Part shown: positions 4,451-58,305 of the stretch, in pieces | Position numbering within the stretch: position 1 is the stretch's first letter | How the letters are laid out: each line of letters opens with the position of its first letter | NCBI GenBank assembly: GCA_963775125.1 | Contig: CAVZHQ010000007.1 | Coordinates: forward strand, 488,059-552,058 | Source of the DNA: an uncultured Acidimicrobiales bacterium | Lineage (GTDB): Bacteria; Actinomycetota; Acidimicrobiia; Acidimicrobiales; SZUA-35 | Length of the DNA: 64,000 bases | Direction: 5' to 3' | Notes under the pieces: generated by a model | Database searches by the model: none | What the model saw: the letters and a program-made list of their open reading frames with translations, nothing else | What the model was told of the DNA's origin: nothing | Program-made: the position numbers and the translations under genes

Positions 4451-4453
4451 CGG

Positions 4454-5224
<771 letters not shown>

Positions 5225-6984: not shown

Positions 6985-7100
6985 TGCCGGCGAGCCTGAA
7001 CCCAAGGCACATGTGCCCAAACAGTTCGAACTGCGGCCCGCCGATGAACGAAGCATCAGCCCGAGAACGGGACCGAATAACAACCACCGGAGAGATCCAC

Positions 7101-9387: not shown

Positions 9388-11972
9388 CGTTCCTCCGCCG
9401 CGTTCGGGTCCAGGCTCTCCTGGCGGTAACGGCGCTCCTTGCGCCGAATCCGCTCGGGGCGACCCTCATACACCCCCGCCTGACCCAACCGGCAGCCAGT
9501 TACCGAAGCGACTCGTTCGAGATCACGCAATTCGAGTTGTCCGTTCCGTCCACCGGCGTGGTCGGCGCCCGAGGGGCGCTGGCCACGCCGGTGTCGTTCG
9601 ATCCTCCCGACGATGCGACGATGTTGCTCCTCGCCTCGTCCGGGGCCGCGCCGCAGGACGTTGCGGGCCTCCAGATTCGGAGCCGGACGGCCGGCCAGTG
9701 GTCACCGTGGACTGCGCTCGAAGGTGCCGAGGAAGACGCACCTGACGGTGAGCCGGGACAAGAAGGCTGGAGCCCGGACGGAGCGCCAGTCGGCATCGGC
9801 CCGGTGTGGATCGGGGCCGACGCGGAAGAGGTGCAGATCGCCGGCCTGATCTCGGGCGCCGACCGCGCCGTGAGCGTCGAAGCGCTCGCTCCGCTCGATC
9901 GGTCGGCGGACGACTTCGTACAAGCTGACCCGCCTCCGCAGAGCGCCGCGCTCGTACGCGGCCAGCCCGCAATCCAGTCGCGGGCTGCGTGGGCCGACCG
10001 CGGGTACGAATGCCCGGAAGGTCCTCGCTACGCCTCCAACGTCCGAGCAGGCGTCGTCCACCACACGGTCACCACGAACGCGTACAGCCAAGCCGACGTT
10101 CCGAGCATTCTCCGTGGCATCTATCGCCTGCACGTCGACGTCAACGGCTGGTGCGACATTGCCTACAACTTCCTGATCGACCGCTTCGGCACGATCTGGG
10201 AAGGACGCAGCGGCGGCATCGATCGGCCGGTCGTCGGTGGCCACAGCAAGGGACTGAACAACGGAACGTTCGGCGTGGCGCTCATCGGCCAACACCAGGC
10301 GGGCGTCAGCCCGGCGGCTGCCGCGGTTCCGACCGCGTCCCTTGCCTCACTCGAAGCCGTGATCGGTTGGAAGTTCGCATTGCACGGCGTCGATCCCAAC
10401 GGAACCACCTGGGTGCAGAACCGCAATCCCGACCGGGTGGGTGCCCGGTTCGCCTACCTCGCCTGGGTCCAGATCCCCACCCTCGTCGGGCACCGGGAAC
10501 TGGTCGAGACCTCCTGTCCGGGCAGTCACGCCTTCCCGCAGATCGGCGGGATTCGGTCGAGGCTGATGGCCGGGCGAGTCGGTCCCGTACCGCACGCCTT
10601 CCCCGGTCACGAGCCCTACGAGCACGGCCCCGGCTTCGTCACCCTCGACGAGTTCGGCGGCCTTCGCCCCGGCGGGAGCGCCCGCTCCTTCGGCGGCGTC
10701 GCCGTCCCCGCCGGGACCGCGGCAATCGCCGTCGATGGTGGAGCCGACGGTGGGTACATCCTGGCCTCGAACGGAACCCTGCTCGCCTACGGCTCCTCGC
10801 CCGCAGTGGGCGGTACCCCGGCCGGCGGGAACCGGCCGGTCGACGTCGTCGTCCGTTCCAGCGGTTCCGGCGGTTGGCTGCTCGACGCCAACGGTTCGCT
10901 GCACGCCTTCGGCGGAGCGGCCGCGGTGGCTGCGGCTCCGGCCGGGGGTTCGGCCCTCGCGGCCGATCTCGACGACGCCGGCAAGGGCTACGTGCTCGCG
11001 GCCAACGGCTTGCACGCAGTGGGTGGTGCACCGGCTCGCTCACTGAACGTCGCCAACGCGGTCTCGGTGGCGGTCCGCAGCGATCGCGCCAGCGGCTGGG
11101 TGCTCGACTCCGGTGGTCGACTGACGCCGTTCGGCGGAGCGCCCGGTTGGCAGCCGGCGGCCGGCATCGGCACGGCACAGGCAGTGATCGTCGGGACCAA
11201 CGACCGGGGTGGTTGGGTGACGGACACCGAGGGACGCATCATCCCCTTCGGCGACGAACGCCGCATCCTGCCCACCTCGACCACGGTTGGTGTCGGACAC
11301 ACGGTCGATGCCGCGCTCGTCAGCTGGGTCACCGATGACTCTTCGGACCTCATCCGGTTCACCAAGGCCCTCAGCACGCTGTTCCTCGGAACCACCGACC
11401 CGGTCTCCGCCGACATCCTGGCCACCCGGGTGGTCTGGCAGTCCCGCAGCGCCGTCGTCGACGAACTGGCACGGTCCGAGCCATGGGCGGGCAAGGTCGT
11501 CGACCAGATGTACCTCGACGTTCTCGGCCGCGGCCCGGACGCGGCCGGTCGCTCGTTCTGGGTGCAGCGCCTCCGGGCCGGGTTGCGGGTGCAGGACATG
11601 GGCGCCTTCTTCTACGGGTCAGCCGAGTACTACCGATCGGCGGGAAGCAACCAGGGATACGTGACTCGGCTGTATCTGGCCTTGCTGCGCCGCGCGCCGG
11701 ACCAGGCCGGTCTCGACTACTGGGTCGGCCAACTGAACGCCGGACGAGCAGCGACCGACATCACCATTGGCTTCTACCAGTCGCCCGAGTCGCGGCAATC
11801 GCGTGTCATCGGCCTGTACCAACAGGTCCTGCGCCGAAATCCCGACGGTGGTGGGCTAGCGTTCTGGGCAGACCAATTGCTGTCCGCCGACGACATCGCG
11901 CTCGCGGTGAACCTCGCCGGGTCGACGGAGTACTACGAACTCGTCACCGGAAGCGGCGGACCGGAGGATTAG
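9384..11972 (+). CDS. Secreted N-acetylmuramoyl-L-alanine amidase (Amidase_2/PGRP) with repeat domain and DUF4214 tail
   Basis: Start set at TTG 9384, which overlaps the moeZ stop as TTGA. The signal-like leader is TFLRRVRVQALLAVTALLAP. The amidase core reads VVHHTV...WCDIAYNFLIDRFGTIWEGRSGG...GGHSKGLNNGTFGVALIG. It has 5-6 G-W/Y-x-L-x-x-x-G-x-L-x-x-F-G repeats and C-terminal DUF4214-like repeats (YLDVLGRGPDAAG..FW). Confidence 0.8.
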   Translation: MTFLRRVRVQALLAVTALLAPNPLGATLIHPRLTQPAASYRSDSFEITQFELSVPSTGVVGARGALATPVSFDPPDDATMLLLASSGAAPQDVAGLQIRSRTAGQWSPWTALEGAEEDAPDGEPGQEGWSPDGAPVGIGPVWIGADAEEVQIAGLISGADRAVSVEALAPLDRSADDFVQADPPPQSAALVRGQPAIQSRAAWADRGYECPEGPRYASNVRAGVVHHTVTTNAYSQADVPSILRGIYRLHVDVNGWCDIAYNFLIDRFGTIWEGRSGGIDRPVVGGHSKGLNNGTFGVALIGQHQAGVSPAAAAVPTASLASLEAVIGWKFALHGVDPNGTTWVQNRNPDRVGARFAYLAWVQIPTLVGHRELVETSCPGSHAFPQIGGIRSRLMAGRVGPVPHAFPGHEPYEHGPGFVTLDEFGGLRPGGSARSFGGVAVPAGTAAIAVDGGADGGYILASNGTLLAYGSSPAVGGTPAGGNRPVDVVVRSSGSGGWLLDANGSLHAFGGAAAVAAAPAGGSALAADLDDAGKGYVLAANGLHAVGGAPARSLNVANAVSVAVRSDRASGWVLDSGGRLTPFGGAPGWQPAAGIGTAQAVIVGTNDRGGWVTDTEGRIIPFGDERRILPTSTTVGVGHTVDAALVSWVTDDSSDLIRFTKALSTLFLGTTDPVSADILATRVVWQSRSAVVDELARSEPWAGKVVDQMYLDVLGRGPDAAGRSFWVQRLRAGLRVQDMGAFFYGSAEYYRSAGSNQGYVTRLYLALLRRAPDQAGLDYWVGQLNAGRAATDITIGFYQSPESRQSRVIGLYQQVLRRNPDGGGLAFWADQLLSADDIALAVNLAGSTEYYELVTGSGGPED

Positions 11973-11978
11973 CCTGAC

Positions 11979-13850
11979 ATGACCATGATTTCGCGCTTGG
12001 CAGCTGTCGCACTTCTCGTGGGTTCGTTGGTGACCGTGTCGTTCGGCGTCGTCGTCGACGCACGCCCCGTCGCCGCTCAGGAGACCCTCCCGCTTCCCGT
12101 CACCGTCTCGGGGCGCGGTTGGGGACACGGTCGAGGACTCGGCCAGTACGGGGCTCAGGGCTACGCCGCCGACCATGCCTGGACCTCGGCCCAGATTCTC
12201 GACCATTTCTACGGCGGCACGACGGCCGGCCAGATCCCTGCGGATGCTCCGGTCAACCCAGCGGCGGTTCGTGTCGACCTGCGGAGCCAGCAGGGCCAGT
12301 CGCTTCGCGTGAGCCTGGCCGCCGGGACCATCCTGGTTCGGTCCACCGATGGCGTCGACCGTTGGGCTCACCAAGGAAGCGTCCGGCTCTCGGTCGTCGG
12401 ATCCGGCATCCGGCTCGAGACTTCGTCAGGGTGTGACGGGACCTGGACCGAAGCGTTCACCACGACCGAGTTCAGCGCTCTCGACCTCGTCGCGGCCCCG
12501 TCGGCGGGCGGCCCCGACGGCCTCATGCGGGTCTGCTACGCCGACGGATCCAGCACCTGGTACCCCGGCTATCTACGGTTCAGTTCGAACCCGATACGCA
12601 CCGTCAACATCGTCACCATCGAGGAGTACCTGCGGGGTGTCGTTCCCTCCGAGGTCCCCGCCGGTTGGCACCCTGCTGCGCTCGAAGCCCAGGCCGTTGC
12701 CGCTCGTTCGTACGCGATGGCAGGCGACACCCGCCAGCTGCCGTACGCCGATACGTGCGACACCATTCTCTGTCAGGTGTACGGCGGCTACTTCCGCAAC
12801 ACGGCGGCGCGGGGCATGGTCAGTACGGTCACGCCCACCACCGATGCTGCCGTGGCGGCGACGGCCGGTTTGGTCCGGTTGACCGGCGCCAGCATCGCTC
12901 GTACCGAGTTCTCCAGCAGTACCGGTGGGTACACCGCCGGTGGCGCGTTCCCGGCGGTCCCGGACGTGGGTGACGCCACGGCGTCCAATCCCAATCGCAC
13001 CTGGTCGTTGATCGTCGATCTCCGACCGTTCATCACCGCCCAGGGCAAGGGAGAACTCATCGGAGTGGACGTCGCTCGCACTGGGCTCGGTGCCGACGGA
13101 GGACGGGCGACCTCGGTCACCTTCCGATTCGCCGGCGGGTCCACGACGATGACGGGCGACGCCGCTCGGCGGGCGTTCGGTCTCAAGTCCGACTGGTTCA
13201 CCTTCGGACCGATTCCCGTGGCGGCGGTGACCGCGGCCAACTACGTCAACGCCAGCTATCAACTCTTCATTCGGCGTCAGCCAACAGATGGCGAGCGATC
13301 AGCGTGGGTCGAGAACCTACGACGGGGCGTCGCCCGCACCGCGTTGACGCAGGCCCTTGCCCGTTCCGACGAGTGGGCCGGGGTCATGATCGACGATCTC
13401 TATGTCGATGTCTTCGGCCGGCCTGCGGACCCGGGCGGCAAGGCGTACTGGCTCGGGCGCATGCGATCCGGACTCCGCTTCGAGGCGGTAGCGGCCAACT
13501 TCTACGGCTCGGCCGAGTACTTCCAGCGGTCGGGTAGCACCAACGCCGGTCTCGTCGCCGCCCTCTACAGCGACATCCTCGGTCGAGCCCCCGATGCTGC
13601 GGGTCTCGCCTATTGGTCCGGTTTGCTCGACCAGGGGCGAGCAACTCCTGGCGGTGTCTCCACCGGCTTCTTCGCCTCGATCGAGTCCCGGCAGGATCGG
13701 GTTCGCCGGGTCTACCTGTCGGTGTTGGGTCGAGAACCCGATGCCGCCGGCGGAGCGCACTGGGCGCAGTCGCTCCTCTCGGTCGACGACGTCAACCTCG
13801 CAGCGCTCCTCGCCGCATCCGACGAGTTCTACGGTCGGGCCCAGGGCTAG
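11979..13850 (+). CDS. SpoIID/LytB domain protein with DUF4214 tail
   Basis: Signal peptide MTMISRLAAVALLVGSLV. SpoIID block IEEYLRGVVPSEVPAGWHPAALEAQAVAARSYA...CDTILCQVY. The C-terminal DUF4214-like repeats parallel those of the upstream amidase. Confidence 0.85.
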   Translation: MTMISRLAAVALLVGSLVTVSFGVVVDARPVAAQETLPLPVTVSGRGWGHGRGLGQYGAQGYAADHAWTSAQILDHFYGGTTAGQIPADAPVNPAAVRVDLRSQQGQSLRVSLAAGTILVRSTDGVDRWAHQGSVRLSVVGSGIRLETSSGCDGTWTEAFTTTEFSALDLVAAPSAGGPDGLMRVCYADGSSTWYPGYLRFSSNPIRTVNIVTIEEYLRGVVPSEVPAGWHPAALEAQAVAARSYAMAGDTRQLPYADTCDTILCQVYGGYFRNTAARGMVSTVTPTTDAAVAATAGLVRLTGASIARTEFSSSTGGYTAGGAFPAVPDVGDATASNPNRTWSLIVDLRPFITAQGKGELIGVDVARTGLGADGGRATSVTFRFAGGSTTMTGDAARRAFGLKSDWFTFGPIPVAAVTAANYVNASYQLFIRRQPTDGERSAWVENLRRGVARTALTQALARSDEWAGVMIDDLYVDVFGRPADPGGKAYWLGRMRSGLRFEAVAANFYGSAEYFQRSGSTNAGLVAALYSDILGRAPDAAGLAYWSGLLDQGRATPGGVSTGFFASIESRQDRVRRVYLSVLGREPDAAGGAHWAQSLLSVDDVNLAALLAASDEFYGRAQG

Positions 13851-13877
13851 CTGCAGGCCGGCTGGAGCGCGTCGACG

Positions 13878-15098
13878 TCAGGACGCCGTCGCTGCTACGG
13901 CGTAGCGGAGCTCGGCGGCCGCTCGAGCCCACGTGAACGAGTGCGGTACTTCGCGGGCTCGCTCGAGGATGTCTGCCCGGAGCTGATCGTCTCCCAGGAT
14001 GCGTTCGATCCCGTCGGCCAACGCCTTGGGCGTGGGGTCGACCACCAGGCCGGCCCCGGTCTCCTCGACCAGGTCGACCAGGCCACCACCGTCTCGGCAC
14101 ACGATGACCGGCCGTTGCCACAACATGCCCTCGAGGGCGGTGAGGCCGTAGTCCTCCCGGAAGGCGGGGGCGACGACCACCGACGCTCCTGCGTACGAAC
14201 GGTTCCGCTCGTCATCGCTCACGTTGCCGAGGAACCGGTTGGGAGATCCGTCGGGCTGGGAGCGGCGGGTCTGCTGCCCGCGGACGGTCTGCATCCAGAA
14301 CCGTTCCGGATCGGGGTCAGAGGCGAGCGAAGGGTCCTCGATGAGGCGCTCGTCGAGGCCACGAACGAAGTCGAGGCGTCCGCCGGTCCCGATGAACTCG
14401 ATGGGTCGGACCGGGCCCGGGCGAGCCGCCAACAGATGCCCGGTGGCGACGAGAAGCTCGGTTCGTTTGGGCCACTCGTGGCGGCTGACGCAGACGACTG
14501 GCCCAGCTGGGGACCAGGCCGGCGGGTCGTCCGGCACTTCGGTGAGCGCTGGTGCGTGCAACAGCGACGTCATGGCCGACGGAATCGACCAGTACTCGGC
14601 CAGCCGTGAGCTGCACTCACTCGACCCTGCAAGCCAGTGTTTGACGTTGCCGACGAAGGTGCGGTCGATCGCCTGCACTTCCTCGGACGCAATTCGGTGG
14701 AGCCGCGGGGCGATCTCGCCCATGCGGCTGTAGCGCTCGGAGAGATCGTAGAAGACGCGCGCCTGGTGATAGAAGAGCGCGAGGACCCGAGGATGATCGA
14801 CGAGGAACGTGGGGGGTTGGGTGCTGAGCACCAGGTCATAGCGGCTGAGGTCGAGACGCCGGACGTCCTCGACCAACGCGGCGTAGGTGAAGAACCCGGT
14901 GTGGTCGTGCCAGACGCGCACGGCGGTGCTGTTGCCGAATACCGCTCTCGGCCAGAGCAGCGCCGGCAGTGCCTGCTCCTCGACCTGGTGCCCTTCGTCG
15001 ATCAGCAGACCGATGATGCGTTCGAGCAGTCGTTCGAAGCCGCCCATCACTCCGTAGTCGGGCTTGACCACCGCAATCTTCAGGCGCCCTTGGGTCAT
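13878..15098 (-). CDS. Glycosyltransferase, GT4 (GT-B fold)
   Basis: 406 aa. The N-terminus KIAVVKPDYGVMGGFERL is paralogous to the first domains of both tandem GTs. C-terminal FREDYGLTALEGMLWQRPVIV. The start overlaps the upstream stop as ATGA (15095-15098). Confidence 0.8.
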   Translation of the reverse strand: MTQGRLKIAVVKPDYGVMGGFERLLERIIGLLIDEGHQVEEQALPALLWPRAVFGNSTAVRVWHDHTGFFTYAALVEDVRRLDLSRYDLVLSTQPPTFLVDHPRVLALFYHQARVFYDLSERYSRMGEIAPRLHRIASEEVQAIDRTFVGNVKHWLAGSSECSSRLAEYWSIPSAMTSLLHAPALTEVPDDPPAWSPAGPVVCVSRHEWPKRTELLVATGHLLAARPGPVRPIEFIGTGGRLDFVRGLDERLIEDPSLASDPDPERFWMQTVRGQQTRRSQPDGSPNRFLGNVSDDERNRSYAGASVVVAPAFREDYGLTALEGMLWQRPVIVCRDGGGLVDLVEETGAGLVVDPTPKALADGIERILGDDQLRADILERAREVPHSFTWARAAAELRYAVAATAS

Positions 15099-17906
15099 TG
15101 GTGTTCCAGCTCGGCCCGGGTTTCCAACTCGTCGAGCCGATCCTGAAGACGTTGATTGTCCTTACGGAGCGCTTCGACCTTGATGGCCAATTGGGTGACG
15201 GCGTCGATCATCGCCTCGTTGTAGTTCAGCTGCTCGTTGGAGATGAGTTGTCCGGCTCGGACGAGAACCCGTTTCGGGAACCGCAGACGGGCGGCGTCGG
15301 GGATGAGCCGACCGACGTGACGGTTCTCGGTGGCCTGCTTGATGCTTTCCTGAATGAGCGGATCCACAATGGCTGCTTTCGAACTTGGGTCGGTGGTTCG
15401 GGCCAGCCTTCCGACGGCTCGGATGGTGGCCTCGATCGGATCGATGGGAGGCGGCGGGGTCTCGGCCAGGATGACGGGAGTTCGCGGTCGTTGCCGTGTT
15501 CCGGTGGGCAGAGTGGCGCCGGGTCCCACACCGGCCGTCGAGAGCACGAAATCGGCCCACGTCCGGGCCAAGTGGTGCCAGTCGAACCGCTGCTCGACCA
15601 GCTCTCGTCCCCGGGCGATTCGGTTCTGTTGGGCCCGAAGGTCGTCCGGGTCGGTGCCGACCATGAGGTCGAGTCCTGCGACGAAGCCACGGACCGTCGG
15701 GTCACAGACGACAACGGCGGCGGCCGGTTCGTCCAGACCGCGGGCACCGACCTCGGTGGTGAGGACCGGAGTGCCTACCGAGAGGTAGTCGAAGACCTTC
15801 AGGTTGCTGCCGCCGCCGGAGATCATCGGGTTGAGCAGCGACCGTGGCCCCGGCGAGCAATGGCCACAGAAGGCTCTCGGCGAAGATGGCAATGAGATGG
15901 ACGTTCTCGGGGATGGGCTCGCCCGCGAACTCGCTGGTGTGGCTGCCGGCGAGCACGAAGACCCAGTCGGGTCGTTGGCGGGCTACGTCGAGCAACAACC
16001 GAGCGGCGTCGATGTTGGGTGGATGCCAGGACCCGATGAACACGCCGAGCGGTCGTTCGTCGTCGGGATCGAATCCTGCGACGCCGAGAATCTCCTGCCG
16101 GGCCAACGACGCCTGGTGCGCCGTCTTCACCGGAAGAGCGGCGGCATCGACGCCGTTGGGTACGACCAGGCCGGCGACGCCGGGTTTGGCTGCCTGGAGC
16201 TGGACGAGGTCGGATTCGGTGCAGGCAACCACGGCCGCGGCCCGGCGTGTGGCGTCGATCTCGGTGGCCCTCACCCGTTCGGCCAGCCATCGGCCGGCGT
16301 CGTTGTCGGGGAGCATTGCGGCCTTGAACCGCGTTTCGAAGTTCTGCGACTCGTGGAGCAGCGGCACGGCGAGGTCGTGCGGGAGGGCAGGCACGAGGAA
16401 CGGATGCGAGGCGACGACTACATCGGTGTCGATCAGTTGTCGACGTAGCTCGTCGTCGAATGCCGGCGTGGCCGCCACCAACTCTCCGGCGGTGATGTCG
16501 TCGACCGGGAGCTTCAACAGCGCGTAGATGTCGTCCTCGGCCTCTCGCTGTGCAATCGAACGGGGAATCTCGACCTGGACGAGCCCGGGTTCGAGCACCC
16601 GCCGTCGCACACGATCCGACGCCGACGACGGCACGAGCACCGTGACGTCGGCGTGCGCGGCCAAGCCGGCGCTCAGGTGCCGAAGTCGGCGTTGTCCTCC
16701 CCCGATGGCCGGTTCGATCGGGTAGGTGCTGAGTACCAACGCCTTCGGACGGTTCGCTGCGCCGAGCGACTCGACCGCACCGAGCGACTCGATCAGGTCG
16801 AGCAGCGGATCGAACGAGATGCCGGCTACTCGCCGGCGGGCGTTGAGACCGATGGTCCAGCGAGCGAACGGGTCATGGGCGAGATGGGCCATCGCTCCGG
16901 CGATGGCCTGCGGATCAGGCCGGACGAGCATGCCGTTGACGCCGTGCTCGACCAATTCGGTGGGCCCACCGCTGTCCACGGTGGTCACGACCGGGGTGCC
17001 CGCAGACATGGCCTCGGCGGCGATGTACCCATAGTCCTCGTGGAACGGCGTGAACACCACGCCCGTCGCTTCCCGGTACAGCGACCGAAGTTCCTCATCG
17101 GAGACCCGACCGACGAAGGTGACCCTGGCGTCGGGCTCGGCCAGCTGCTCGAGTCGAGCCCGATCGGGTCCGTCGCCGGCGATGATCAGCTCGACGTTCG
17201 GGTCCTTGAAGGCAGCCAACGCTTCGAGCACGAGATCGATGCGTTTGGGGGGATCGAGCCGGCTGACGGCCAGAAAGCGACCGGCGCTCGGCGGGTGTCC
17301 GATCGGATCGGCCAGGCACGCCGTCGCCAGATCGCTCTCGGGGTGCACGACGAGGACGGGTTGGTCGGCTGGGAGATACCCGTCGCGGCCTGCGACCTCC
17401 TCGGAGATCGCGGCGAACCGTGCGACCTGGCCGAAGGCGATGCGATCGAGGGCGTGGATTGCTGCCCGGGCGAACGGCCCGGGAAATGCTGCTCGTTCGG
17501 GGAAGCGTTCGAGCAGGCTGCGGGCGACGTCGATGAGGTCGGCTGCGCTACCGGCGTTCGCCAGAGCCGTGTCGTCGTCCGGACCATCATCGGTCGCCAG
17601 CGTGTCGGGGTAGGTGTCGTACAGTCCCCGAAGGGGGTGAAGGAGGTAGACGAGATGGCGTGGATGCCGGACCATCCACGCCGGGTATTTCCCCGTGACG
17701 ACCACGTCGAAGCGTGACACATCGAGACGCAAGAACGTCTCGTAGGCGTCGAGCACCTCGGCCAGTGTTGCTTCGGGCGTGGGGACAGCCACCAGTTCGA
17801 CATCGTGGCCGCGCTCGATCAGACGTCGCCGCAGGGTTTGCCACAAGCGTTCCGCCCCGCCGGTCACGTTTCCCGGTGCAACCGGGGTGATGATGCCGAC
17901 CTTCAT
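15095..17906 (-). pseudogene. Tandem (two-domain) GT4 glycosyltransferase with coiled-coil tail; frame broken by an apparent +1 shift near 15836 (or sequencing indel)
   Basis: Track ORFs 15702..17948 (MKVGIITPVAPGNVTGGAERL from ATG 17906) and 15095..15892 join by homology as ...LLAGATVA|LNPMISGGGSNLKVFDYLSVGTPVL. This is a single GT-B C-terminal motif split across two frames. The paralog at 21284..23654 has the same architecture. Confidence 0.7.
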
Positions 17907-17916
17907 CGGACCGTGC

Positions 17917-18132
17917 TCACGGGCGACCGCGTTCGAGCGCCCGCGCAATCACGAACTCGATGTAGTCGGCGTTCGATCGGAACCGCAGCCGCTCTGCCCT
18001 GCGGCGCAGCGTGGTGCGGTTGACCCCGCGCGCCCGGGTCGCAAGCTGGAGGAGGTTGGATCGAGCGGTTGGTAGACGACCGGGTTTGAAACGACCGTGT
18101 CTGCGTTGGAGGAGTGCCTGCACCGGCGGCAA
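17917..18132 (-). CDS. Small ORF with helix-turn-helix-like C-terminus, in frame directly after the meaB TAG stop
   Basis: 71 codons. The C-terminal half (LLQLATRARGVNRTTLRRRAERLRFRS...) has strong GC3 bias and an HTH-like pattern. The N-terminal half has weak codon bias and no clear RBS, so the true start is uncertain. Confidence 0.3.
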   Translation of the reverse strand: MPPVQALLQRRHGRFKPGRLPTARSNLLQLATRARGVNRTTLRRRAERLRFRSNADYIEFVIARALERGRP

Positions 18133-19086
18133 CTATAGGGGCGGCAGACGGGTGGTCGGAGCCACCGACGCCAAGACGAGCGCCGCCGCCTTGCTGGCCG
18201 GCAGCGTGCCCCGGGCAACCTGGTGGACGATCGGGTCGAGCAGCTCGGGATTGGCCTGAATCCGGGTGAGGAGGCGGGTGTTGATGATGCGCCACATTGC
18301 GTCGACGGCCTGGTCGCTGCGGAGGCGGGTCAACGCTCCGAGATCGTGAAGTGTCTGCCACGCCGCGACCAGGTGGTCCCAGAGTTCGACCACGCCGGAA
18401 CCGTTCAGGGCAGAGCACAGCAGGACGTCGGTGGTGATGCCTTCGCGTTTGGGTCGCACGAGGTGCAGCGCGGCCCGGTAGTCGGCCGCGGTGTGGGACG
18501 CGGTTGCCAGGTACGGCCCGTCGGCCTTGTTGACCACGACCACGTCAGCCAGCTCCATGACGCCCCGTTTGATGCCCTGGAGGTCGTCGCCACCACCAGG
18601 AGCAACGAGCAGCACGAACAGGTCGGTGATGTCGGCCACTGCGGTCTCGGACTGTCCGACCCCGACCGTCTCGACGATGACCACGCCGAACCCGGCGGCC
18701 TCACAGAGCAGCACCACTTCTCGGGTCGCGTCGGCGACGCCACCGAGCACACCCCGGCTGGGGGACGGTCGTACGAACGACGCCGGATGGGTGGCGAGGA
18801 ACGGCATGCGGGTCTTGTCACCGAGGATCGACCCGCCGGTGCGGCGCGACGACGGATCGACGGCGAGGACAGCGACCTGCTGGCCGAGTTCGATGACGTG
18901 GTGACCGAGCCGTTCGATGAGGCTGCTCTTACCGACACCCGGCGTGCCCGAGACGCCGATGCGGTGCGACCGTCCGGTGTTGGGCAGAACGAGGCTCAGG
19001 AGCTCGTCGGCCCGGTCTCGGTGGTCGGGGCGTGACGATTCGACCAGCGTGATGGCTTTGGCCAAGGCCCGCCGTTCTCCGGCCAT
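18133..19086 (-). CDS. meaB: Methylmalonyl-CoA mutase-associated GTPase (MeaB/ArgK)
   Basis: P-loop GVSGTPGVGKSSLIERLG. G-domain blocks DPSSRRTGGSILGD, ETVGVGQSE and VVNKAD. Start taken at ATG 19086, though a start further upstream overlapping the mutase is possible. Confidence 0.9.
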   Translation of the reverse strand: MAGERRALAKAITLVESSRPDHRDRADELLSLVLPNTGRSHRIGVSGTPGVGKSSLIERLGHHVIELGQQVAVLAVDPSSRRTGGSILGDKTRMPFLATHPASFVRPSPSRGVLGGVADATREVVLLCEAAGFGVVIVETVGVGQSETAVADITDLFVLLVAPGGGDDLQGIKRGVMELADVVVVNKADGPYLATASHTAADYRAALHLVRPKREGITTDVLLCSALNGSGVVELWDHLVAAWQTLHDLGALTRLRSDQAVDAMWRIINTRLLTRIQANPELLDPIVHQVARGTLPASKAAALVLASVAPTTRLPPL

Positions 19087-19127
19087 GAGGCGTTCGGCCA
19101 GGGCGGCAGGACTCTCGGGCGGGGGGG

Positions 19128-21272
<2,145 letters not shown>

Positions 21273-21283
21273 TCCCGAGTCGT

Positions 21284-23654
21284 TCACGTCGCCAATGGTA
21301 CGCCGAGCAGCTCGGCAATTGCCGATTCGAGGGGCCCAAGCGCGACGTCCCACCGGTACTGCGTCGCCAACTCCTGGCCTGCGGCCGCCCGCTCACGAGC
21401 GGGCCCGGGAGCCGCCAGGACGGCTCGGATGCCGGCCAGCAGTTCACCGGGCTCGGCGATGTGCAGAACGGACCCGGGGTCCGGAAGCCCTCGTGCGCCG
21501 ACTGCGGTCGCCACGACTGGTGTACCGGAGGCGAGTGCTTCGATCAGCTTGAGGTTCGTGCCCGATCCGGCCTCGACCGGGTTGACGATGACATCGGCGG
21601 CGAGGAGGAGCCGATTGAGGTCATGATCGGCAAAGGAACCGAGGCTGACCGGCCCGGTACGGGAACGGTTCGAATGGCTTCCGGCCAACACGACCAGGAG
21701 TTCCGGCGCAGCTAGGGCGAGGTCGGCGAGGCGATCAGCCGCCTCGTGGTTCGGGGCGTGGGACGAGCCCACGAAGAGGACGATGGGCCGCTCATCGTCC
21801 GGTATCCCGATGTCCGCCAGGAGCCGAACGCGCGCCGCAGACGCGTTGTGGTCCCGGGCCGGGAGGGCAGTGCAGCAGTCGGTCGTCGACTCCGTTGGGG
21901 GCGACGAGGTTGCGATGACCGCAACCCGGCGGACAAAGGCGGGCGAGGTCGTCGTCGGAGACCGCGCTGACCACCGTTGCTCTTGCCAGCGCCTGGGCTT
22001 CGGCCTTCTCGCACCACTCCATCAAGCGGGTGGCACCGGGACGACCATCGAGCAGCCGCTCCTTGAGATCGATCTCGACGTTGTGCGCGTCGTACACGGT
22101 GGGCTTCTTCATCCCCGTCGGCAGCACGGGGGCCAGGAAGGGGTGGGCGAGCACGATCAGGTCGGAGGCATCGACGTGGGCCGCCAGCAGGGGAGCGAAC
22201 GCCGGCGTTGCCCGGTGGAGCGGGCCGATGGCGATGTCATCGACGGGGACACCGACGAGTGCCCGCATCTCGTGGTCGGCTTTCAGATGGGGCCGCGATC
22301 GACCCACCGCCAGTTGCACGACGCCATCGTCCAGTCGCCGGTTCCGGACACCGGTGACCTCGTTGGTCAACGCCAGCACGGTCACATCGGCGAAGGACTG
22401 GAGCCGATTGGCGACCGCCCGAAGCCGGCGAGAGCCCCCGCCGGTCACCGGTTCGGCGACGAAGGTGGACAACATCAGCACCCGAGGTCGCGGCGGGGCG
22501 AGATCGGGCTCGAGGAGCCTGAGCAGGGGACGCCAGCTGAGGGTCCGGACCCGGTCCCGTCCTGCCCGGCCCTTGCGGTCCGAGCCTGCGGGGTCGAGGG
22601 CGAGGTCGCGCATGGCGGCGCCGATCCGTCGTGGCATCGGCGGCACCACGATGCCCGCCGGGGGCGCCGATGCCAGCACCTGTTCGGCGATGCCGCCGCT
22701 GTCGGTGGTGGTGAGGATGGGGCGGCCGGCCGCGTGGGCCTCGGCTGCCACCAACCCGTAGTCCTCGTCCCTCGGCGTGAGCACGACGGCGACTGCCGAG
22801 GCCAGATAGCGGGCAAGTTCGTCATCGGAGCAGCGTCCGAGCAGGCGCACGCCGGTGGTGCGATCGGCCATGGCCTGCAGCGCCGGGGCCTCGGGCCCGG
22901 TACCCGCGATCCAGAGTTCGAACGGTTCGGGCCGTGCCCGGCCGAGGCCCGACCGGTCGAAGGCTTCGATGGCGAGATCGAATCGCTTGTCAGCGGTGAG
23001 CCGTCCGAAGGCGAAGAAGTGCGCGCCGATCCCGACATCCGAAGCGTCAGGATCGGCCGGCGTCGGGAGATCGGTGAGCGGGGAAATGATGGCAACGGGA
23101 CCTGAACCGAGCAGGGCCGCGTAGCTCGGCCGAAGGGCGACCGCTTCCGACACTGCGGCCTGGACGTGGATCTTGCGGCTGGCCGTCTCGTCGAGGGCCT
23201 GGATGACTGCCTGCATCCAGGGGCCGGGAAGGCTCCATCCGGGAGCGTTCAGATCTTGTGCTTCGGCCCAGTCGAGGAGGGCGGCCGGGCCGGCGGCCGC
23301 GACGCTGTCGATTTGGGCGCGCTGCTCGGCCGAGGCTGGGGGAAGGTGTTTGGGATAGAGGTCGTAGAGGCCGCGGAGCGGATGGTTGAGGTGTCGGACG
23401 TGCAGGGGGTGCTGCACCATCCACGACGGGTACTTGCCGGAGATGACGGCGTCGAACCCGCTGACGTCGAGGTCGAGGAAACGTCGGTAGGACGCCAGTA
23501 CCTCGACGCTGGTGGATTCCGGTGTGTCGACTGCGAGCAGCTCGGCCTGATGGCCGGCGCCGATCAACGCGGCCACCAGGGCGTCCCAATGCCGTTCGGC
23601 CCCACCGTGCACGTAGGGGACAGGTCGTGGGGCCACAACCGCGATCCGACTCAC
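21284..23654 (-). pseudogene. Tandem (two-domain) GT4 glycosyltransferase; frame broken by an apparent +1 shift near 21870 (or sequencing indel)
   Basis: ORF 21792..23654 (MSRIAVVAPRPVPYVHGGAERH...) ends in nonsense after ...VAPNGVDD. The +1 frame continues ALPARDHNASAARVRLLADIGIPDDERPIVLFVGSSHAPN...NPVEAGSGTNLKLIEALASGTPVV (ORF 21284..21772). This is colinear with the paralog sequence VDAAALPVKTAHQASLAR...DPDDERPLGVFIGSWHPPN. Confidence 0.7.
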
Positions 23655-23899
23655 GTCGGGCCCGCCTGGTCGTCGGTCGGCAGGCCGTCGGCTTCTCGAA
23701 TGGCCTGTTCGACGATGCGGTCGAGCAAGCGATCGGGGTCGCCCAGTCGGGCCTTCAGGCCGACCCGAGCCGCGGTCAAGGTTCGGCGGGTCGAACGAGC
23801 AGCGGGATGGGCTTTCGCCACGTCGACCAGCGGGCCAAGAGCTTCTGCCTCGCGCTCGAGACGCCGACGAACGCGGGAGCCGAACGAGTCAGCGCTCAC
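23651..23899 (-). CDS. Small (82-codon) ORF translationally coupled between two GT genes
   Basis: The GTG start at 23899 overlaps the upstream GT stop (GTGAGCGCTGA). Its TGA overlaps the GTG start of the downstream tandem GT (GTGA). GC3-biased, Arg/Ala-rich helical sequence with no recognised domain. Confidence 0.4.
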   Translation of the reverse strand: MSADSFGSRVRRRLEREAEALGPLVDVAKAHPAARSTRRTLTAARVGLKARLGDPDRLLDRIVEQAIREADGLPTDDQAGPT

Positions 23900-25100
23900 A
23901 CGGTCCCCATGCGCAAAGGCCCATGCGCTCGGCCATCGTCGCCGTGTCGCCCTTCGCCTCGAGGTCGACGAAGTGGGCCTGGACGAGTTGGGGGTCGACC
24001 GGGCGCCCCGTCCCTGCAAACGCTGCGGCCAGATGTGGCACCAACCGTGCGGCCAGATCGGTCGGGTTGTCCTTGTCGAAGTACTCGGCGACGTCGCCCC
24101 CCACCTCGCGCAGCACCGGAATGTCGCTGCACAAGACGTTGGCGCCGCAGGCCATGGCTTCGAGGACCGGCATGCCGAAGCCCTCGTAGTGAGAGGGCTG
24201 CACTGCGACCGCACAGGTTTGATAGAGGGCGAGACGCTCGTCCTCGGTGACGTAGCCGGTGACCCGAATGTCGATGCCGTCGGCCTGAAGCTCTGCGATG
24301 CGAGCCAGCAGCGCATCGGACGACCAGCCTGCCCCTCCGGCCAACACCAACGTTGTCTGCCGACGTAGGTCGGGTTCGAGCAGCGCGAAGGCCTCGATCA
24401 GCACCCGATGGTTCTTGCGTGGTTCGATGGTGGCTTGGCACAGCACGAACGGGCGATCGAGCCCGAACCGTTCGGGGGGTGCTGCTGCCGGGTTGGGTTG
24501 GTGACGGTCGTCGGGCAGGAAGGGGATGACCAGAACCTTGTCGGCGGGCACACCGAGGTGGATAGCCATCTCGGCTTTGACTTCGTGGGACCACGTGAGG
24601 ATCAGGTCCGAACGACGGGCCGCCCGGGGAATGACGCGGGCCAGAAAACTCGGGCCGCTGGGAAAGATCCGGCCCGCTACGCCGGCCCGGCCCGGCTGGA
24701 CGTGTTCGGGGCACACGAGGTAGCCGAGGTCATGGATGATGATGACCTTCATCGGCGCGGTGCTGGGCATGAGGTAGTTGTTGTTGCACAGCACGACGTC
24801 GTACCGGCGGCGCCAGAGCAGTTCGAGCGGGGGCGCCAAACCGAACGCCATCAACTTGAGGTAGATGGCGCTGGGGAACAGACGCTGCCGCAAAGGTCGA
24901 CCGAGGGCCGGGTCCGGGAGACCTCGGGTGCCACGAAGATCGAAGTAGCCGAGATCGAACTGGGTGCCCTCGGGGCTCTGCTCGATGAGGCGGCCAACGA
25001 GGTACTCGCTGGCGTAGGCCACGCCGGTCTTCACGTCGACGAACGGGTCGGCGCTCACGAACACGCGCTTGGGTTTCGTGGTCGGACGACGTTTGTTCAC
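23889..25100 (-). CDS. Glycosyltransferase, GT4 (mannosyltransferase-like)
   Basis: 403 aa. C-terminal GT4 block VQPSHYEGFGMPVLEAMACGANVLCSDIPVLREVGGD. It is the first gene of the minus-strand operon. Confidence 0.85.
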   Translation of the reverse strand: MNKRRPTTKPKRVFVSADPFVDVKTGVAYASEYLVGRLIEQSPEGTQFDLGYFDLRGTRGLPDPALGRPLRQRLFPSAIYLKLMAFGLAPPLELLWRRRYDVVLCNNNYLMPSTAPMKVIIIHDLGYLVCPEHVQPGRAGVAGRIFPSGPSFLARVIPRAARRSDLILTWSHEVKAEMAIHLGVPADKVLVIPFLPDDRHQPNPAAAPPERFGLDRPFVLCQATIEPRKNHRVLIEAFALLEPDLRRQTTLVLAGGAGWSSDALLARIAELQADGIDIRVTGYVTEDERLALYQTCAVAVQPSHYEGFGMPVLEAMACGANVLCSDIPVLREVGGDVAEYFDKDNPTDLAARLVPHLAAAFAGTGRPVDPQLVQAHFVDLEAKGDTATMAERMGLCAWGPCER

Positions 25101-25158
25101 AGGAGCCCGACACTAGCGGTTCCCCTCTCGGTGTCGGGGTGACCGCTAGCCTCGGAGC
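25101..25158. promoter_or_regulatory. 58-bp divergent control region with two interleaved inverted repeats
   Basis: CCGACAC (25107-25113) pairs with GTGTCGG (25131-25137). CTAGCGGT (25113-25120) pairs with ACCGCTAG (25142-25149). The arrangement is A-B-A'-B'. Confidence 0.35.
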
Positions 25159-26530
25159 ATGCCTGGTCACGAGAAACGTTTCGTCATCATCGGCGGTGGC
25201 CCCGGTGGCACTGCCTGCGCCACCCACGCTGCTCGTTATGGCGCCAACGTGACGTTGATCGAGAAGGACCTGGTCGGTGGTGCAGCCCACCTTCTCGACT
25301 GCATCCCGTCCAAGGCCATGATCGCCACGGGCGGGGCGATGTCGATGATGAACCATGCGGCCGAGATGGGCCTGGCCAAAGTCGATGTGAGCCTGGACTT
25401 CGACGCCCTTCGTGACCGGATTCTCGAGATCGAGGAGCGGCTCGAGCATTCGGTTCGCAGTCTGCTCGAGAGCCAGAAGGTCAACATCATCGAAGGCGTC
25501 GGCACGCTCACCGGACCCAACTCGGTGTCGGTTCAGCACAACGACGGCAAGACGTCGACCCTCGATGCCGACGTGATCGTGTTGGCCACCGGTAGCCGAC
25601 CCCGGATCCCTGATTGGGCGCCCATCGATGGGCAGCGCGTGCTCTCGACTCGCCACGCCTACCCGCCGCCCGAGTTGCCCCGGAAACTCATCGTCATCGG
25701 TTCAGGCGTCACCGGCGTCGAGTTCGTTCACATGTTCCGATCGTTCGGATCCGAAGTGATCCTGATCGTCAGTCGCCAGCAGGTGCTCCCCGACAAGGAT
25801 CCCGAGGTCGCCTCGGTCCTCGAGCACAGCTTTCTCGACCGAGGGGTCAAGCTGTTCATGGGGGCCCGAGCCCAGTCGATCGAAGTTGACGGCAACACGG
25901 TAAAGGTCTTCTGCGACGATGGCCGGGTGGCCGAGGGTTCGCACGCGTCTGTTGGCCATTGGATCGGTGCCGAACTCCGAGAACCTCGGTCTCGACTCGG
26001 CCGGCGTCGACCACGAGAACGGGTACGTGAGGATCGACCACAACTGCCGGAGCAGCGTGGCCCACATCTATGCCGTCGGCGATCTGTCCGGCAAGCTGCC
26101 GCTGTCGTCGGTCGCCACGACCCAGGGTCGCAAGGTCGCCGAGCACGCCATGGGACTCCACGCCGGACCCCATCGGCATCTCGACTACGAGAAGGCTGCT
26201 TCGGCCATCTTCACCGACCCCGAGATCGCCGACGTCGGGCTGGCCGAGGCCGACGCGTTCGCCGAAGGTCGCAAGATCCGGGTGACCAAGGTGCCGTTCT
26301 CGGTATCGGCCAAGGCCCTCATCAACAACGACAGCCGGGGCTTCGTCAAGATCGTGTCCGACCCCGCCACCGGCGTCGTGCTCGGAGGCTCCATCGTCGG
26401 ACGCCACGCGGCCGAACTCATCTCGGTCCTCGCCTTGGCCGTCACCGCCGGACTTCGGGTCTCCGATCTGGTCGAATCGATCTTCGTGCACCCCGCCTTG
26501 GCCGAAGTCCTGGGCGAAGCCGCCGAGTAG
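25159..26530 (+). pseudogene. lpdA: LpdA-like flavoprotein disulfide-reductase-family NAD(P)H oxidoreductase; +1 frame break near 25948 (or sequencing indel)
   Basis: FVIIGGGPGGTACA, a single-Cys site GGAAHLLDCIPSK, and a second Rossmann block LIVIGSGVTGVEF. Frame 1 turns to nonsense after ...AEGSHA. Frame 2 (ORF 25919..26530) continues LLAIGSVPNSENLGLDSAGV...YAVGD...FVHPALAE. An extra t sits in CAC GCG t CTG TTG. Confidence 0.8.
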
Positions 26531-27545: not shown

Positions 27546-28841
27546 ATGGCGGCGGTCCTTCCTTCAGTTGACGCTCTCGAAGACTTCCACTGGGACGTCG
27601 ATGTCGCGTTGGACTCGGTGTTGTCGGCCGCCGACGTGGCGGAGCGAGGTGACATCGAGCTGCTCGACCGGTTGGTGCGAGTGCTGGCCGACGAGCTCTT
27701 CCGCCGAGACGGAGCGTCGTCGTTGACCGGTTGGTTGCGCCGGCGTCTGGGTCTCGATGTGCCCGCTGCTCGACGGATGGCTCACACCGTTCGTGTGTTG
27801 CTGTTGTTGCCCGACCTGCGATCGGCGCTGGTGTCCGGTTCCACGTCGCTGTCCCACCTTCGTGTCCTCGAACGAGCGGCCACCGAGGAGCGTCACGATC
27901 ACCTCGCGCTGTTCGCCGATCAGCTCGTCGGTTACGCGTGCTCGATGGGGGTCGATGACTTTCGTTCGGTCTGCGAACGCTGGGCTGACCTGGTCGACGC
28001 CGAGGTCGAGCCCCGAGATCTACCGGCCGGGTATCTGGCGGTCTCGTCGACCTTGTTCGGGCAAGCCGATATTCGAGGTCGGCTCTCCGCCGACCAGGCG
28101 GCTGTGTTCGGCGAGGTACTGGGCCAGCTGAATCGGCCCGACCCCGCAGACGCCCCAGCGAAGCGAACCCACCGGCAACGCAACGCTGACGCACTGGCCG
28201 ATCTGGCTCAGCACTACCTCGATTGTGGCCACCTCGACGGCGGTCATCTGCCTGAGGCCGTCCCGGAAGAGGACGACAGGCCGAGGCTCGCTCGCCACGG
28301 CCGCAGCAGGGCTCGGGCGGTCGTGGTCATCGATTTCGATGGACTCACCGACTCGATCCCCGAGTTGTGGGACGACGAGCGTCGCCAACCAGTGCTCGAC
28401 CGGATCCGTCGATCCAACGCCGAGGGACGTTCCCTGCCCGCTGAGGTCGCTGCGCTCCTCGTGTGCGATGGCTCGATGCAGCGCTTGCTGGTCGATCCCA
28501 ACGGTCGGCCCCTCGATCTTGGACGAGCGACGCCAGTGGTCAGCGCGGCCCAACGGACGGCGTTGGCGGTGCGCGATGGCGGTTGTGGGTTCCCAACCTG
28601 TGATCGGCCCGGCCACCATTGCGATGCCCACCACCTGCGGCACTGGCGTAAGGGCGGGTCAACGAACCTCGACAATCTGGTGTTGCTCTGTAGACACCAC
28701 CACCGCCTGGTCCACGGACCGTGGTGGGACCTCAAACGAGACCCCATCACGGGTCTGATCACCGCCGAGCGCCGAGAGGCAGGCTCCAATCGTGTGGTGA
28801 CCTACCGCCGAGACCCACGCGGCGTGGTGTTCACGTCCTAG
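27546..28841 (+). CDS. DUF222 + HNH endonuclease (actinobacterial 13E12-repeat-type)
   Basis: 431 aa. C-terminal HNH block RDGGCGFPTCDRPGHHCDAHHLRHWRKGGSTNLDNLVLLCRHHHRLVH, preceded by a long helical DUF222-like N-terminus. Confidence 0.9.
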   Translation: MAAVLPSVDALEDFHWDVDVALDSVLSAADVAERGDIELLDRLVRVLADELFRRDGASSLTGWLRRRLGLDVPAARRMAHTVRVLLLLPDLRSALVSGSTSLSHLRVLERAATEERHDHLALFADQLVGYACSMGVDDFRSVCERWADLVDAEVEPRDLPAGYLAVSSTLFGQADIRGRLSADQAAVFGEVLGQLNRPDPADAPAKRTHRQRNADALADLAQHYLDCGHLDGGHLPEAVPEEDDRPRLARHGRSRARAVVVIDFDGLTDSIPELWDDERRQPVLDRIRRSNAEGRSLPAEVAALLVCDGSMQRLLVDPNGRPLDLGRATPVVSAAQRTALAVRDGGCGFPTCDRPGHHCDAHHLRHWRKGGSTNLDNLVLLCRHHHRLVHGPWWDLKRDPITGLITAERREAGSNRVVTYRRDPRGVVFTS

Positions 28842-57789: not shown

Positions 57790-58305
57790 GTGTTCGTGCT
57801 CGGTATCGACCCAGGTCTGACCCGTTGTGGCTATGCGGTCATCGAACCCGGGCCACGCGGTGGCGGCGTTGCCCGTTCGCTCGGCGTGCTCTCCACCGAC
57901 CCCTCCCACAAGCTGGCCAACCGGCTGGCCGACCTCCGCCGAGATCTCACCGAGCTGTTCGACGAATTCCGTCCCTCGGTGGTCGCCATCGAGCGAGTCT
58001 TCTTCCAGCAGAACGTCCAGACCGCGGTGAGTGTGGCCCAGGCCGCCGGCCTGGCGATGGCCGAAGGAGCCAGTCGGGGATTACCCGTCGTCGACTACTC
58101 ACCCTCGCAGATCAAGTCGGCCGTGGCCGGTGATGGGCGGGCCGACAAGCGGCAGATGCAAGAGATGGTGCGGACCTTGCTTGGACTGGCTGCCACGCCG
58201 CAGCCGCCCGACGCGGCTGACGCAGCTGCGGTTGCGTTGTGCCACCTGGCCCATGACCCCACGGGACGTATGGGTCGTCTGGTTCCGATGGGACGCACAC
58301 GATGA
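57790..58305 (+). CDS. ruvC: Holliday junction resolvase
   Basis: VLGIDPGLTRCGYAVI, VAIERVFFQQN and DAADAAAVALCH. Confidence 0.9.
   Translation: MFVLGIDPGLTRCGYAVIEPGPRGGGVARSLGVLSTDPSHKLANRLADLRRDLTELFDEFRPSVVAIERVFFQQNVQTAVSVAQAAGLAMAEGASRGLPVVDYSPSQIKSAVAGDGRADKRQMQEMVRTLLGLAATPQPPDAADAAAVALCHLAHDPTGRMGRLVPMGRTR

Follow-up and report, generated by a model that had tools for sequence, protein, structure and literature searches.

On the minus strand of a 64,000-nucleotide stretch of DNA from an uncultured Acidimicrobiales bacterium (contig CAVZHQ010000007.1; the whole stretch is here called the window), the genes for a methylmalonyl-CoA mutase (MCM), mutB, and for its G-protein chaperone, meaB, lie within a string of GT4 glycosyltransferase (GT) genes. 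Comparison with related loci leads us to regard the string as probably one variant of a flexible envelope-glycan island built around resident housekeeping mutB and meaB, in which the coupling between mutase and glycosyltransferases would be positional and not biochemical. We see the arrangement as a synteny quirk, specific to one clade, in a type of locus that is already known.

Eight genes make up the string, which runs from 25100 to 13878 (11.2 kb) in the order GT403, orf82, tGTA, mutB, meaB, orf71, tGTB and GT406, where tGTA and tGTB stand for tandem GT-A and tandem GT-B. Sequence inspection and profile searches confirmed the genes, their order, their minus-strand orientation and their coordinates as given in a first-pass annotation of the window. 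The first gene, GT403 (23889–25100), codes for a single-module GT4 glycosyltransferase (Pfam Glycos_transf_1, E 4.9e-26, and Glyco_transf_4; EX7E motif). It is followed by orf82 (23651–23899), which codes for a small conserved protein and was recognized by codon comparison with the related locus L045, where an 82-aa gene is called (L- and P-numbers denote relatives' loci and proteins). Next is tGTA (21284–23654), with two GT-B/GT4 modules (Pfam matches in both pieces) and 789 aa long after one extra base is dropped. mutB (19128–21272) specifies a single-chain mutase with its own B12 domain (NCBIfam NF006944, Pfam MM_CoA_mutase and B12-binding), and meaB (18133–19086; NCBIfam NF006958, Pfam MeaB) has an uncertain start, at ATG 19086 or TTG 19065. 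A small basic protein with a conserved C-terminal motif is encoded by orf71 (17917–18132), ahead of tGTB (15095–17906), whose 936-aa product, again after one extra base is dropped, has two GT-B/GT4 modules and a C-terminal helical tail (Pfam, AlphaFold). GT406 (13878–15098), a single-module paralogue of tandem-GT module 1 recognized by its ATGA overlap with tGTB and by its similarity to module 1 of that enzyme, closes the string.

Neighbouring genes of the string either overlap or are no more than 62 nucleotides (nt) apart. Read from the sequence, GT403 and orf82 overlap by 11 nt, orf82 and tGTA overlap at GTGA, and tGTB and GT406 overlap at ATGA. An 11-nt gap separates tGTA from mutB, or a GTGA overlap joins them if mutB starts at GTG 21287, and gaps of 0–9 nt and 10 nt lie between meaB and orf71 and between orf71 and tGTB. 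The overlaps and short gaps of the first-pass annotation were thus borne out, except that the distance between mutB and meaB depends on the meaB start: 41 nt to ATG 19086, or 62 nt to TTG 19065, which would be the start if meaB matches the gene of 310 aa annotated in L045. A promoter and terminator scan, which performed no better than on shuffled sequence, gave no terminator-like site on the coding strand within the string, and an Rfam scan of 13000–26000 at E up to 0.1 returned a single chance miRNA match and no riboswitch or leader. The string therefore combines a common strand, short or overlapping junctions and the lack of an internal terminator, the features by which operons are recognized.

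Upstream of GT403, a divergent intergenic region of 58 nt (25101–25158) separates the string from a pyridine-nucleotide-disulphide oxidoreductase gene. It contains interleaved inverted repeats at 25107–25125/25137–25155 (19-nt arms, 79% complementarity) and 25106–25113/25131–25138 (8-nt perfect arms), and it differs from L045 at only 2 of 58 bases, compared to a divergence of ~9–10% across the coding DNA of the string. This region is likely a promoter/operator region, from which all eight genes are probably transcribed as one unit and translationally coupled.

Glycan genes around mutB and meaB in related genomes

The window has a guanine plus cytosine (GC) content of ~67% and resembles an Acidimicrobiales genome; its nearest public loci are all from Acidimicrobiales metagenome-assembled genomes. 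In a GT-centred census, 132 loci encoding tGTB relatives were scored for mutB, meaB, GT406, DUF4214, SpoIID, Wzm, Wzt and RmlA. In 15 distinct loci, whose tGTB identities span 40–91%, mutB and/or meaB were located upstream of the tandem GT gene in the same orientation; none of ~100 more distant loci (Microthrixaceae, Chloroflexota, Dormibacterota, Proteobacteria and others) had either gene there. L045 (91% tGTB identity), L034 (74%) and L001 (62%) preserve the order tGTA-mutB-meaB-orf-tGTB-GT406; L052/L120 and L056 (43–44%) do so with inserts, and there the upstream tandem GT is nearer to tGTA than to tGTB. Conservation of the full order down to 43–44% identity indicates that the embedding of the mutase is old within the clade. 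The first-pass annotation had proposed gene order in relatives as a check and had named unlinked GT and mutase genes as the outcome that would speak against it; since the order is kept, no such unlinking was seen within the clade.

What lies around the pair differs widely between relatives. mutB and meaB are adjacent in the window and in L045, L001, L034, L051 and L052. In L046 and L056 an FG-GAP-DUF4214 gene stands between them, and in L048 they are separated by genes for Wzm, Wzt (with a Wzt_C domain), a GT2 enzyme and a methyltransferase. L134 and L047 are contiguous (176-nt identical overlap) and place mutB and meaB 18.6 kb apart, with glycan genes between. Other inserts fall between meaB and tGTB: three unknown genes and Wzm/Wzt in L051, and 10 kb of MBOAT, ALGX, methyltransferase and GT genes in L049. 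In L047 and L050 an rmlCBDA set and an FG-GAP-DUF4214 gene are found just ahead of meaB. The cargo thus changes in type from one relative to another, with rhamnose, amino-sugar and methylated variants.

An independent sample, centred on mutB and made up of four MutB homologues of 81–83% identity (L134, L135, L136 and L137), gave the same picture. All four loci share a framework that extends from the gene for the acyl-CoA carboxylase alpha subunit (pccA) to a pyr_redox gene (minus strand), a GT4 gene of ~365 aa (minus strand) and mutB (plus strand), and behind mutB-meaB the sample holds three different glycan cassettes. In L135, on a 4.37-Mb contig, mutB-meaB leads straight into SpoIID-DUF4214, amidase-DUF4214, ThiF and SIR2 genes, that is, the framework of the window with no tandem GT gene. 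L136 and L137 carry two further, differing cassettes after meaB. A conserved framework that holds differing glycan gene sets in related genomes is the pattern of a flexible envelope-glycan island at a fixed chromosomal site.

Enterobacterial O-antigen loci offer a precedent for such an arrangement, with gnd and his as hitchhiking neighbours. Another parallel comes from the flexible 'glycotype' genomic islands that occupy a fixed site in 'Candidatus Actinomarinales', another order of Acidimicrobiia (fGI1; PMC7771536). The loci described here resemble them in having a framework (pyr_redox, mutB, meaB, SpoIID-DUF4214, amidase-DUF4214 and ThiF) between whose members envelope-glycan genes are freely exchanged. 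They differ in that the island encloses a pair of housekeeping genes with linked functions, between which up to 18.6 kb of cargo can be inserted, in that no GC deviation is seen, and in that the variation is between species-level lineages.

The mutase itself is an ordinary MCM by every sequence test that we applied. MutB scored 1266 bits against NCBIfam NF006944, where the equivalog-level cut-off is 876, and carries the Pfam domains MM_CoA_mutase and B12-binding. Its closest solved relative is human mitochondrial MCM (1021 bits); against the large subunit of the Mycobacterium tuberculosis enzyme (6oxc) it scored 976 bits. In an alignment to human MCM (8gju), two stretches of 19 and 11 residues are conserved throughout, and MutB retains the DxHxxG cobalamin-binding motif and the substrate-site Tyr, Arg and His that are catalytic in the P. 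shermanii and human enzymes. Human MCM is a homodimer, and a mutA small subunit gene is absent from the string and from all Pfam-annotated relatives. MeaB reached 426 bits against NCBIfam NF006958 (cut-off 329) and matched Pfam MeaB (PF03308) with an E value of 4e-105. As in the canonical actinobacterial mutA-mutB-meaB locus, of which the M. tuberculosis Rv1492–Rv1496 region is an example, meaB directly follows mutB on one strand. Unlike that locus, the string has no mutA, its mutase is nearest to the human enzyme, and the flanking genes code for glycosyltransferases instead of functions in lipid or propionate metabolism.

These data bear on a biochemical explanation of the linkage, in which the mutase and MeaB would supply succinyl-CoA or methylmalonyl-CoA for acylation of the polymer, or glycan synthesis would be deliberately co-regulated with B12 or propionate metabolism. 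The persistence of the linkage over deep divergence (tGTB identity down to 40–44%) would fit this explanation, as would the position of meaB, which in 11 of the linked loci stays ~1.2 kb upstream of orf71-tGTB, including cases where mutB is more than 5 kb away, and the presence of acyl-transfer genes (MBOAT and ALGX) in the island of one relative, L049. However, neither the string nor most of the relatives has an acyltransferase gene, island content is wholly different between relatives around an otherwise ordinary mutase, and L135 keeps both mutB-meaB and the framework although it has no tandem GT. We therefore consider this explanation very unlikely. The supply of acyl units, which the first-pass annotation had raised, found no support, given that the string lacks an acyltransferase gene and that gene content around mutB and meaB varies freely; its other option, that the genes are merely co-located in a compact genome, is the one favoured by the comparative data. 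Literature searches returned nothing on a link between the mutase or MeaB and glycosyltransferases, and nothing specific on wall polysaccharides of Acidimicrobiia. In a related scenario the persistence of mutB and, above all, of meaB would be selected, with envelope-glycan synthesis wired to B12 and propionate metabolism by acyl decoration or by obligatory co-expression through orf71 and orf82. We give it little credence; in the second case orf71 and orf82 would act on tandem GT4 enzymes as regulators or adaptors of a new kind.

Altogether, the lack of an acyltransferase gene, the changing type of cargo and the persistence of mutB-meaB without a tandem GT in L135 argue that no chemistry links the mutase to the glycan. 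In a flexible island with resident mutB and meaB, the pair would be expressed by read-through of the glycan genes from 25101–25158, and its products would do their ordinary job of converting methylmalonyl-CoA to succinyl-CoA, near an acyl-CoA carboxylase gene that is present at 28849–30645.

Tandem glycosyltransferases and the small genes ahead of them

The four GT genes encode soluble transferases of the GT-B/GT4 type. GT403, GT406 and the first modules of tGTA and tGTB all gave PF00534/PF13692 matches above the gathering scores. In module 2, PF13439 (N-terminal half) was above threshold in tGTA and tGTB and PF13692 (C-terminal half) was above threshold in tGTA; the C-terminal piece of tGTB gave only PF13524, below cut-off. 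The EX7E motif is present in GT403 (EGFGMPVLE), GT406 (EDYGLTALE) and module 1 of tGTA (EDYGLVAAE) and tGTB (EDYGYIAAE). In module 2 its first Glu is replaced (AGSGTNLKLIE in tGTA, SGGGSNLKVFD in tGTB). GT403 is a generic GT4 relative and more ordinary than the other GTs of the string; its orthologue in L045 is 92% identical.

tGTA and tGTB are 43% identical in module 1 (E 2e-77) and 37.5% identical in module 2 (E 5e-59), and are thus whole-gene paralogues that flank mutB-meaB. GT406 is 27% identical to module 1 of tGTB (E 2e-24). The paralogy of these N-terminal domains and the duplication of a GT-B/GT4 glycan-assembly locus around the mutase, both noted in the first-pass annotation, are therefore upheld. 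Its description of two modules in each tandem enzyme also held, but neither gene is a single open reading frame (ORF) here, as each is split by a +1 frameshift that had been missed.

In an AlphaFold model of repaired tGTB (mean predicted local distance difference test score (pLDDT) 81.6, predicted template modelling score 0.78), two alpha/beta modules of the GT-B type (residues 1–376 and 388–791) and a disordered linker are seen. The tail, earlier described as a coiled coil, appears as a 61-residue terminal helix at 875–935, modelled with low-to-moderate confidence (block-mean pLDDT 46–77 over 875–936). Foldseek searches with the model gave MshA, ManT, GlgM and PimB', and also BshA, as best matches, with target TM-scores of 0.7–0.78; these are generic retaining GT4 enzymes of 13–20% identity. 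A sequence search of Protein Data Bank chains with tGTB likewise gave generic GT4 matches, and only to module 1. Some tGTB orthologues are longer (1176–1246 aa) and have an S-adenosylmethionine (SAM) methyltransferase fused after the helical tail (P0007, P0020, P0022, P0024 and P0031; L049, L005, L051 and L007), a domain order that was confirmed for P0007 and P0022. This architecture of polymerase, helix and putative terminator is reminiscent of molecular-ruler systems.

The first-pass annotation had likened the tandem enzymes to WbdA. The polymannose O-antigen system of Escherichia coli O8/O9a, known from work of the Whitfield laboratory, comprises WbdA, WbdB, WbdC, WbdD, Wzm and Wzt. We compared it by BLASTP against WbdA, WbdB, WbdC and WbdD of E. 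coli HS and took gene order from the same strain. Both systems combine a two-module GT4 enzyme with single-module GT4 enzymes, and both would follow the logic of ABC (ATP-binding cassette)-transporter-dependent, end-capped glycan assembly; in relatives only, the likeness extends to Wzm/Wzt with Wzt_C and to a SAM methyltransferase encoded alongside or fused after the helical tail. The presence of two GT4 modules in one polypeptide is thus a true similarity, but at the sequence level tGTA and tGTB are only 23–25% identical to WbdA over ~236 aa (E 1e-4 to 2e-3), a level that any GT4 enzyme would reach and that gives no sign of orthology. The tandem-GT matches to WbdA were weaker than those to WbdB and WbdC, and of the E. 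coli O9 enzymes GT403 matched WbdB best (29%, E 1.5e-33). In further contrast to the E. coli system, module 2 of tGTA and tGTB lacks the first Glu of EX7E, the window has two paralogous tandem enzymes, each after a small ORF, and it lacks genes for an exporter, a terminator and GDP-mannose synthesis.

In this assembly one extra base interrupts each of the tandem GT genes, near 21839 in tGTA and near 15839 in tGTB, as mapped against the intact L001 orthologues. As a result tGTA is divided into ORFs at 21792–23654 and 21284–21772 and tGTB into ORFs at 15702–17948 and 15095–15892. If the breaks were real, both enzymes would be pseudogenes and the glycan pathway would be decaying, or phase-variable and off, in this strain. 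Consistent with this, both paralogues are struck, in either case within the second, C-terminal Rossmann domain of module 2, and the deposited 1.4-Mb contig carries the same tGTB break, annotated as P0002 (734 aa) and P0123 (189 aa). However, a Viterbi scan of codon-position GC over the whole window revealed two more breaks of the same kind, in unrelated housekeeping genes: the pyridine-nucleotide-disulphide oxidoreductase (flavoprotein disulphide reductase) gene at 25159–26530 (plus strand, extra base near 25950) and ruvA at 58257–58926 (plus strand, extra base near 58720), in which RuvA_N and HhH share a frame and RuvA_C is encoded in the next one. Each of the four breaks is due to one inserted base that is not part of a long homopolymer, a pattern of long-read assembly error and not of targeted inactivation or slipped-strand switching. 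Furthermore, tGTB is intact in P0122, a 98% identical copy from another sample, and in P0001 (91% identical); the L045 locus, with a 91% identical tGTB and an 809-aa orthologue of tGTA, is intact in every gene; and the frames downstream of the breaks show no further decay. We thus regard decay or switching of the pathway as highly improbable. Programmed frameshifting or phase variation at the two GT sites was also considered and rejected, as the sites are neither slippery nor homopolymeric and insertions of the same kind break ruvA and the flavoprotein gene. Given the intact 98% identical tGTB, the intact L045 locus and the breaks in two unrelated genes, both GT frameshifts are most likely assembly errors, and both tandem GTs would then be functional in the organism. 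Four non-homopolymer +1 breaks in 64 kb suggest an unpolished long-read assembly.

Each tandem GT gene is preceded by a small gene. orf71, previously termed HTH-like, gave no Pfam or NCBIfam match, nor did orf82, yet both are real coding genes by their pattern of conservation. Compared to its L045 orthologue, orf82 has 19 synonymous and 11 non-synonymous codon changes, with 20 of 32 differences at codon position 3, and similar small ORFs are located upstream of tGTA-like genes in L052 and L007. L045, L034, L001 and L046 conserve the C-terminal half of orf71, their codons differing by synonymous changes at the third position, and its motif, RRRxERxRFRxDAxYxxHVVxRAIxRG, is kept right upstream of clade tGTB genes in twelve loci. 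Homologues are called as 68–100-aa genes in L047, L049, L050, L051 and L052, and small ORFs upstream of the tandem GT were located at 9765–10004 in L047, 9777–10004 in L049, 9798–10004 in L050 and 9705–9950 in L052. Indeed, small basic proteins of ~50–100 aa, whose genes often overlap the tandem GT gene, precede the GT in every clade locus whose upstream sequence was examined. A phmmer search of the full library with orf71 found one true homologue and one spurious match, which we ascribe to the family being too short and divergent for single-sequence searches. As small ORFs are found ahead of tGTA-like genes as well, the duplicated unit was probably the small ORF together with the tandem GT gene. 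A profile-profile comparison of the orf71 and orf82 families was weakly positive at the expected register (P ~0.025); position and motif suggest that they may be paralogous.

Every clade locus for which the downstream flank was covered has GT406 alongside the tandem GT. Outside the clade, in many distant phyla (tGTB identity of at most 42%; for example L009, L010, L013, L018, L063 and L070; Chloroflexota, Dormibacterota and others), a GT406-like gene instead lies directly upstream of the tandem GT, at about −1190 nt, and in many cases follows immediately on a Wzm-like gene. The reversed order suggests that the pair is an old, mobile two-gene module.

Neighbouring genes and the fate of the glycan

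Across phyla, the tandem GT and GT406-like module is found beside Wzt_C-bearing Wzm/Wzt, rhamnose-precursor genes and SAM methyltransferases, adjacent or fused; in the census, Wzm/Wzt lay within 10 kb of tandem-GT homologues in ~40 loci. Within the clade, a Wzm/Wzt exporter and a chain terminator are encoded at L048, L049, L051 and L134. On this basis we propose that the GTs would assemble a lipid-linked polymer at the cytoplasmic face and that, in relatives, the polymer would be end-capped by methylation and exported by the Wzm/Wzt ABC route. The host is presumably a monoderm, as expected from general knowledge of actinobacteria, and the product would accordingly not be lipopolysaccharide (LPS).

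On its other side the string ends 27 nt from a convergent gene (11979–13850, plus strand) that codes for a SpoIID domain and four DUF4214 repeats (Pfam). This gene has the same position in L045, L047, L048, L049, L050 and L135. Beyond it lies a gene (~9400–11972, plus strand) for an Amidase_2 peptidoglycan hydrolase that also has DUF4214 repeats (Pfam). The SpoIID and Amidase_2 hydrolases, with 3–4 DUF4214 repeats each, are conserved neighbours of tGTB-GT406; in L051 (16724–20818) their counterparts carry SLH (SpoIID protein) and FG-GAP (amidase) in place of DUF4214. An RTX-DUF4214 protein has been reported in a preprint to bind LPS O-antigen (bioRxiv 10.64898/2026.09.02.748959). DUF4214 is thus a probable wall-glycan-binding tag on peptidoglycan hydrolases, and the SpoIID-DUF4214 protein is a candidate binder of the glycan product. 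We hypothesize that the tagged SpoIID and amidase proteins would dock onto the polymer in the wall.

A further Gram-positive example of ABC-transporter-dependent glycan synthesis is the S-layer rhamnan pathway of Geobacillus, with WsaC–F, Wzm/Wzt and the rml genes. There too, a multi-domain GT also has a methyltransferase domain, and relatives of the window have rml genes and weak WsaF_C matches. The Geobacillus enzyme differs in domain order and sequence families, the window has no rml or methyltransferase genes, and no S-layer protein was identified in this comparison.

Several observations weigh against a flexible island whose product is exported by an ABC route. The 64-kb window contains no Wzm/Wzt, rml or methyltransferase genes; the export route is drawn from relatives; and with no exporter, terminator or precursor genes in the window, it is uncertain what becomes of the product in this organism. 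Co-transcription was deduced from gene spacing. The GC content of the string (0.65–0.70) equals that of its flanks and so gives no compositional sign of recent island exchange. Flexible islands are defined by within-species variation, and the variation seen here is between species-level lineages; the near-identical material recovered consisted of single proteins and short contigs only. Finally, the closeness of meaB to orf71-tGTB in 11 of the linked loci, even where mutB has moved away, would not be predicted by pure hitchhiking, though it is not forbidden by it.

The missing exporter would be explained if the GTs made no exported wall polymer but a cytoplasmic or membrane-anchored product, such as a storage glycan resembling polymethylated polysaccharides or a glycolipid. 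The three closest relatives, too, have no Wzm/Wzt in the 10 kb around the tandem GT, and among the structural neighbours of tGTB are PimA/PimB', MshA and ManT, the last an enzyme of methylmannose polysaccharide synthesis in mycobacteria. However, those structural matches are generic for GT4 enzymes at their low identity, the association of the family with Wzm/Wzt and Wzt_C spans phyla, the conserved neighbouring genes encode secreted wall enzymes with DUF4214 or SLH, and the window itself has a Bac_transf polyprenyl-phosphate sugar transferase gene (878–2284, plus strand) and an ABC-2 transporter 9–12 kb away. We consider a non-exported product unlikely and retain the exported envelope glycan as the preferred reading.

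The ABC-2 transporter pair (3359–5224, minus strand) lacks Wzt_C. It was tried as the missing Wzm/Wzt and rejected, being only ~30% identical in the nucleotide-binding domain. Together with the Bac_transf gene and a GH5 hydrolase gene (5854–7083, minus strand), it is located 7–13 kb beyond GT406, and the three may belong to the same envelope-glycan neighbourhood; a Bac_transf gene is also found at the edge of L135. On the far side of the string, an ORF with DUF222 and an HNH endonuclease domain (27546–28841, plus strand) lies between an alpha/beta hydrolase gene and the acyl-CoA carboxylase gene, within a 1.4-kb stretch without the normal codon-position GC signal. It is probably mobile or recently acquired, and L045 has a DUF222 gene at the same place.

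Collectively, our results caution that an apparent mutase embedded in a glycosyltransferase operon can turn out to be a positional effect. They describe an envelope-glycan island of this clade that is organized around mutB and meaB, much as O-antigen loci lie beside gnd and his. They also give three leads: an uncharacterised, phylum-spanning module of tandem GT4 and GT406 that travels with Wzm/Wzt exporters, a family of small proteins encoded ahead of the clade's tandem GTs, and DUF4214, in whose place one relative has SLH, as a tag by which peptidoglycan hydrolases probably bind wall glycan. For recovering and typing such glycan islands from metagenomes, mutB and meaB could be used as anchors.

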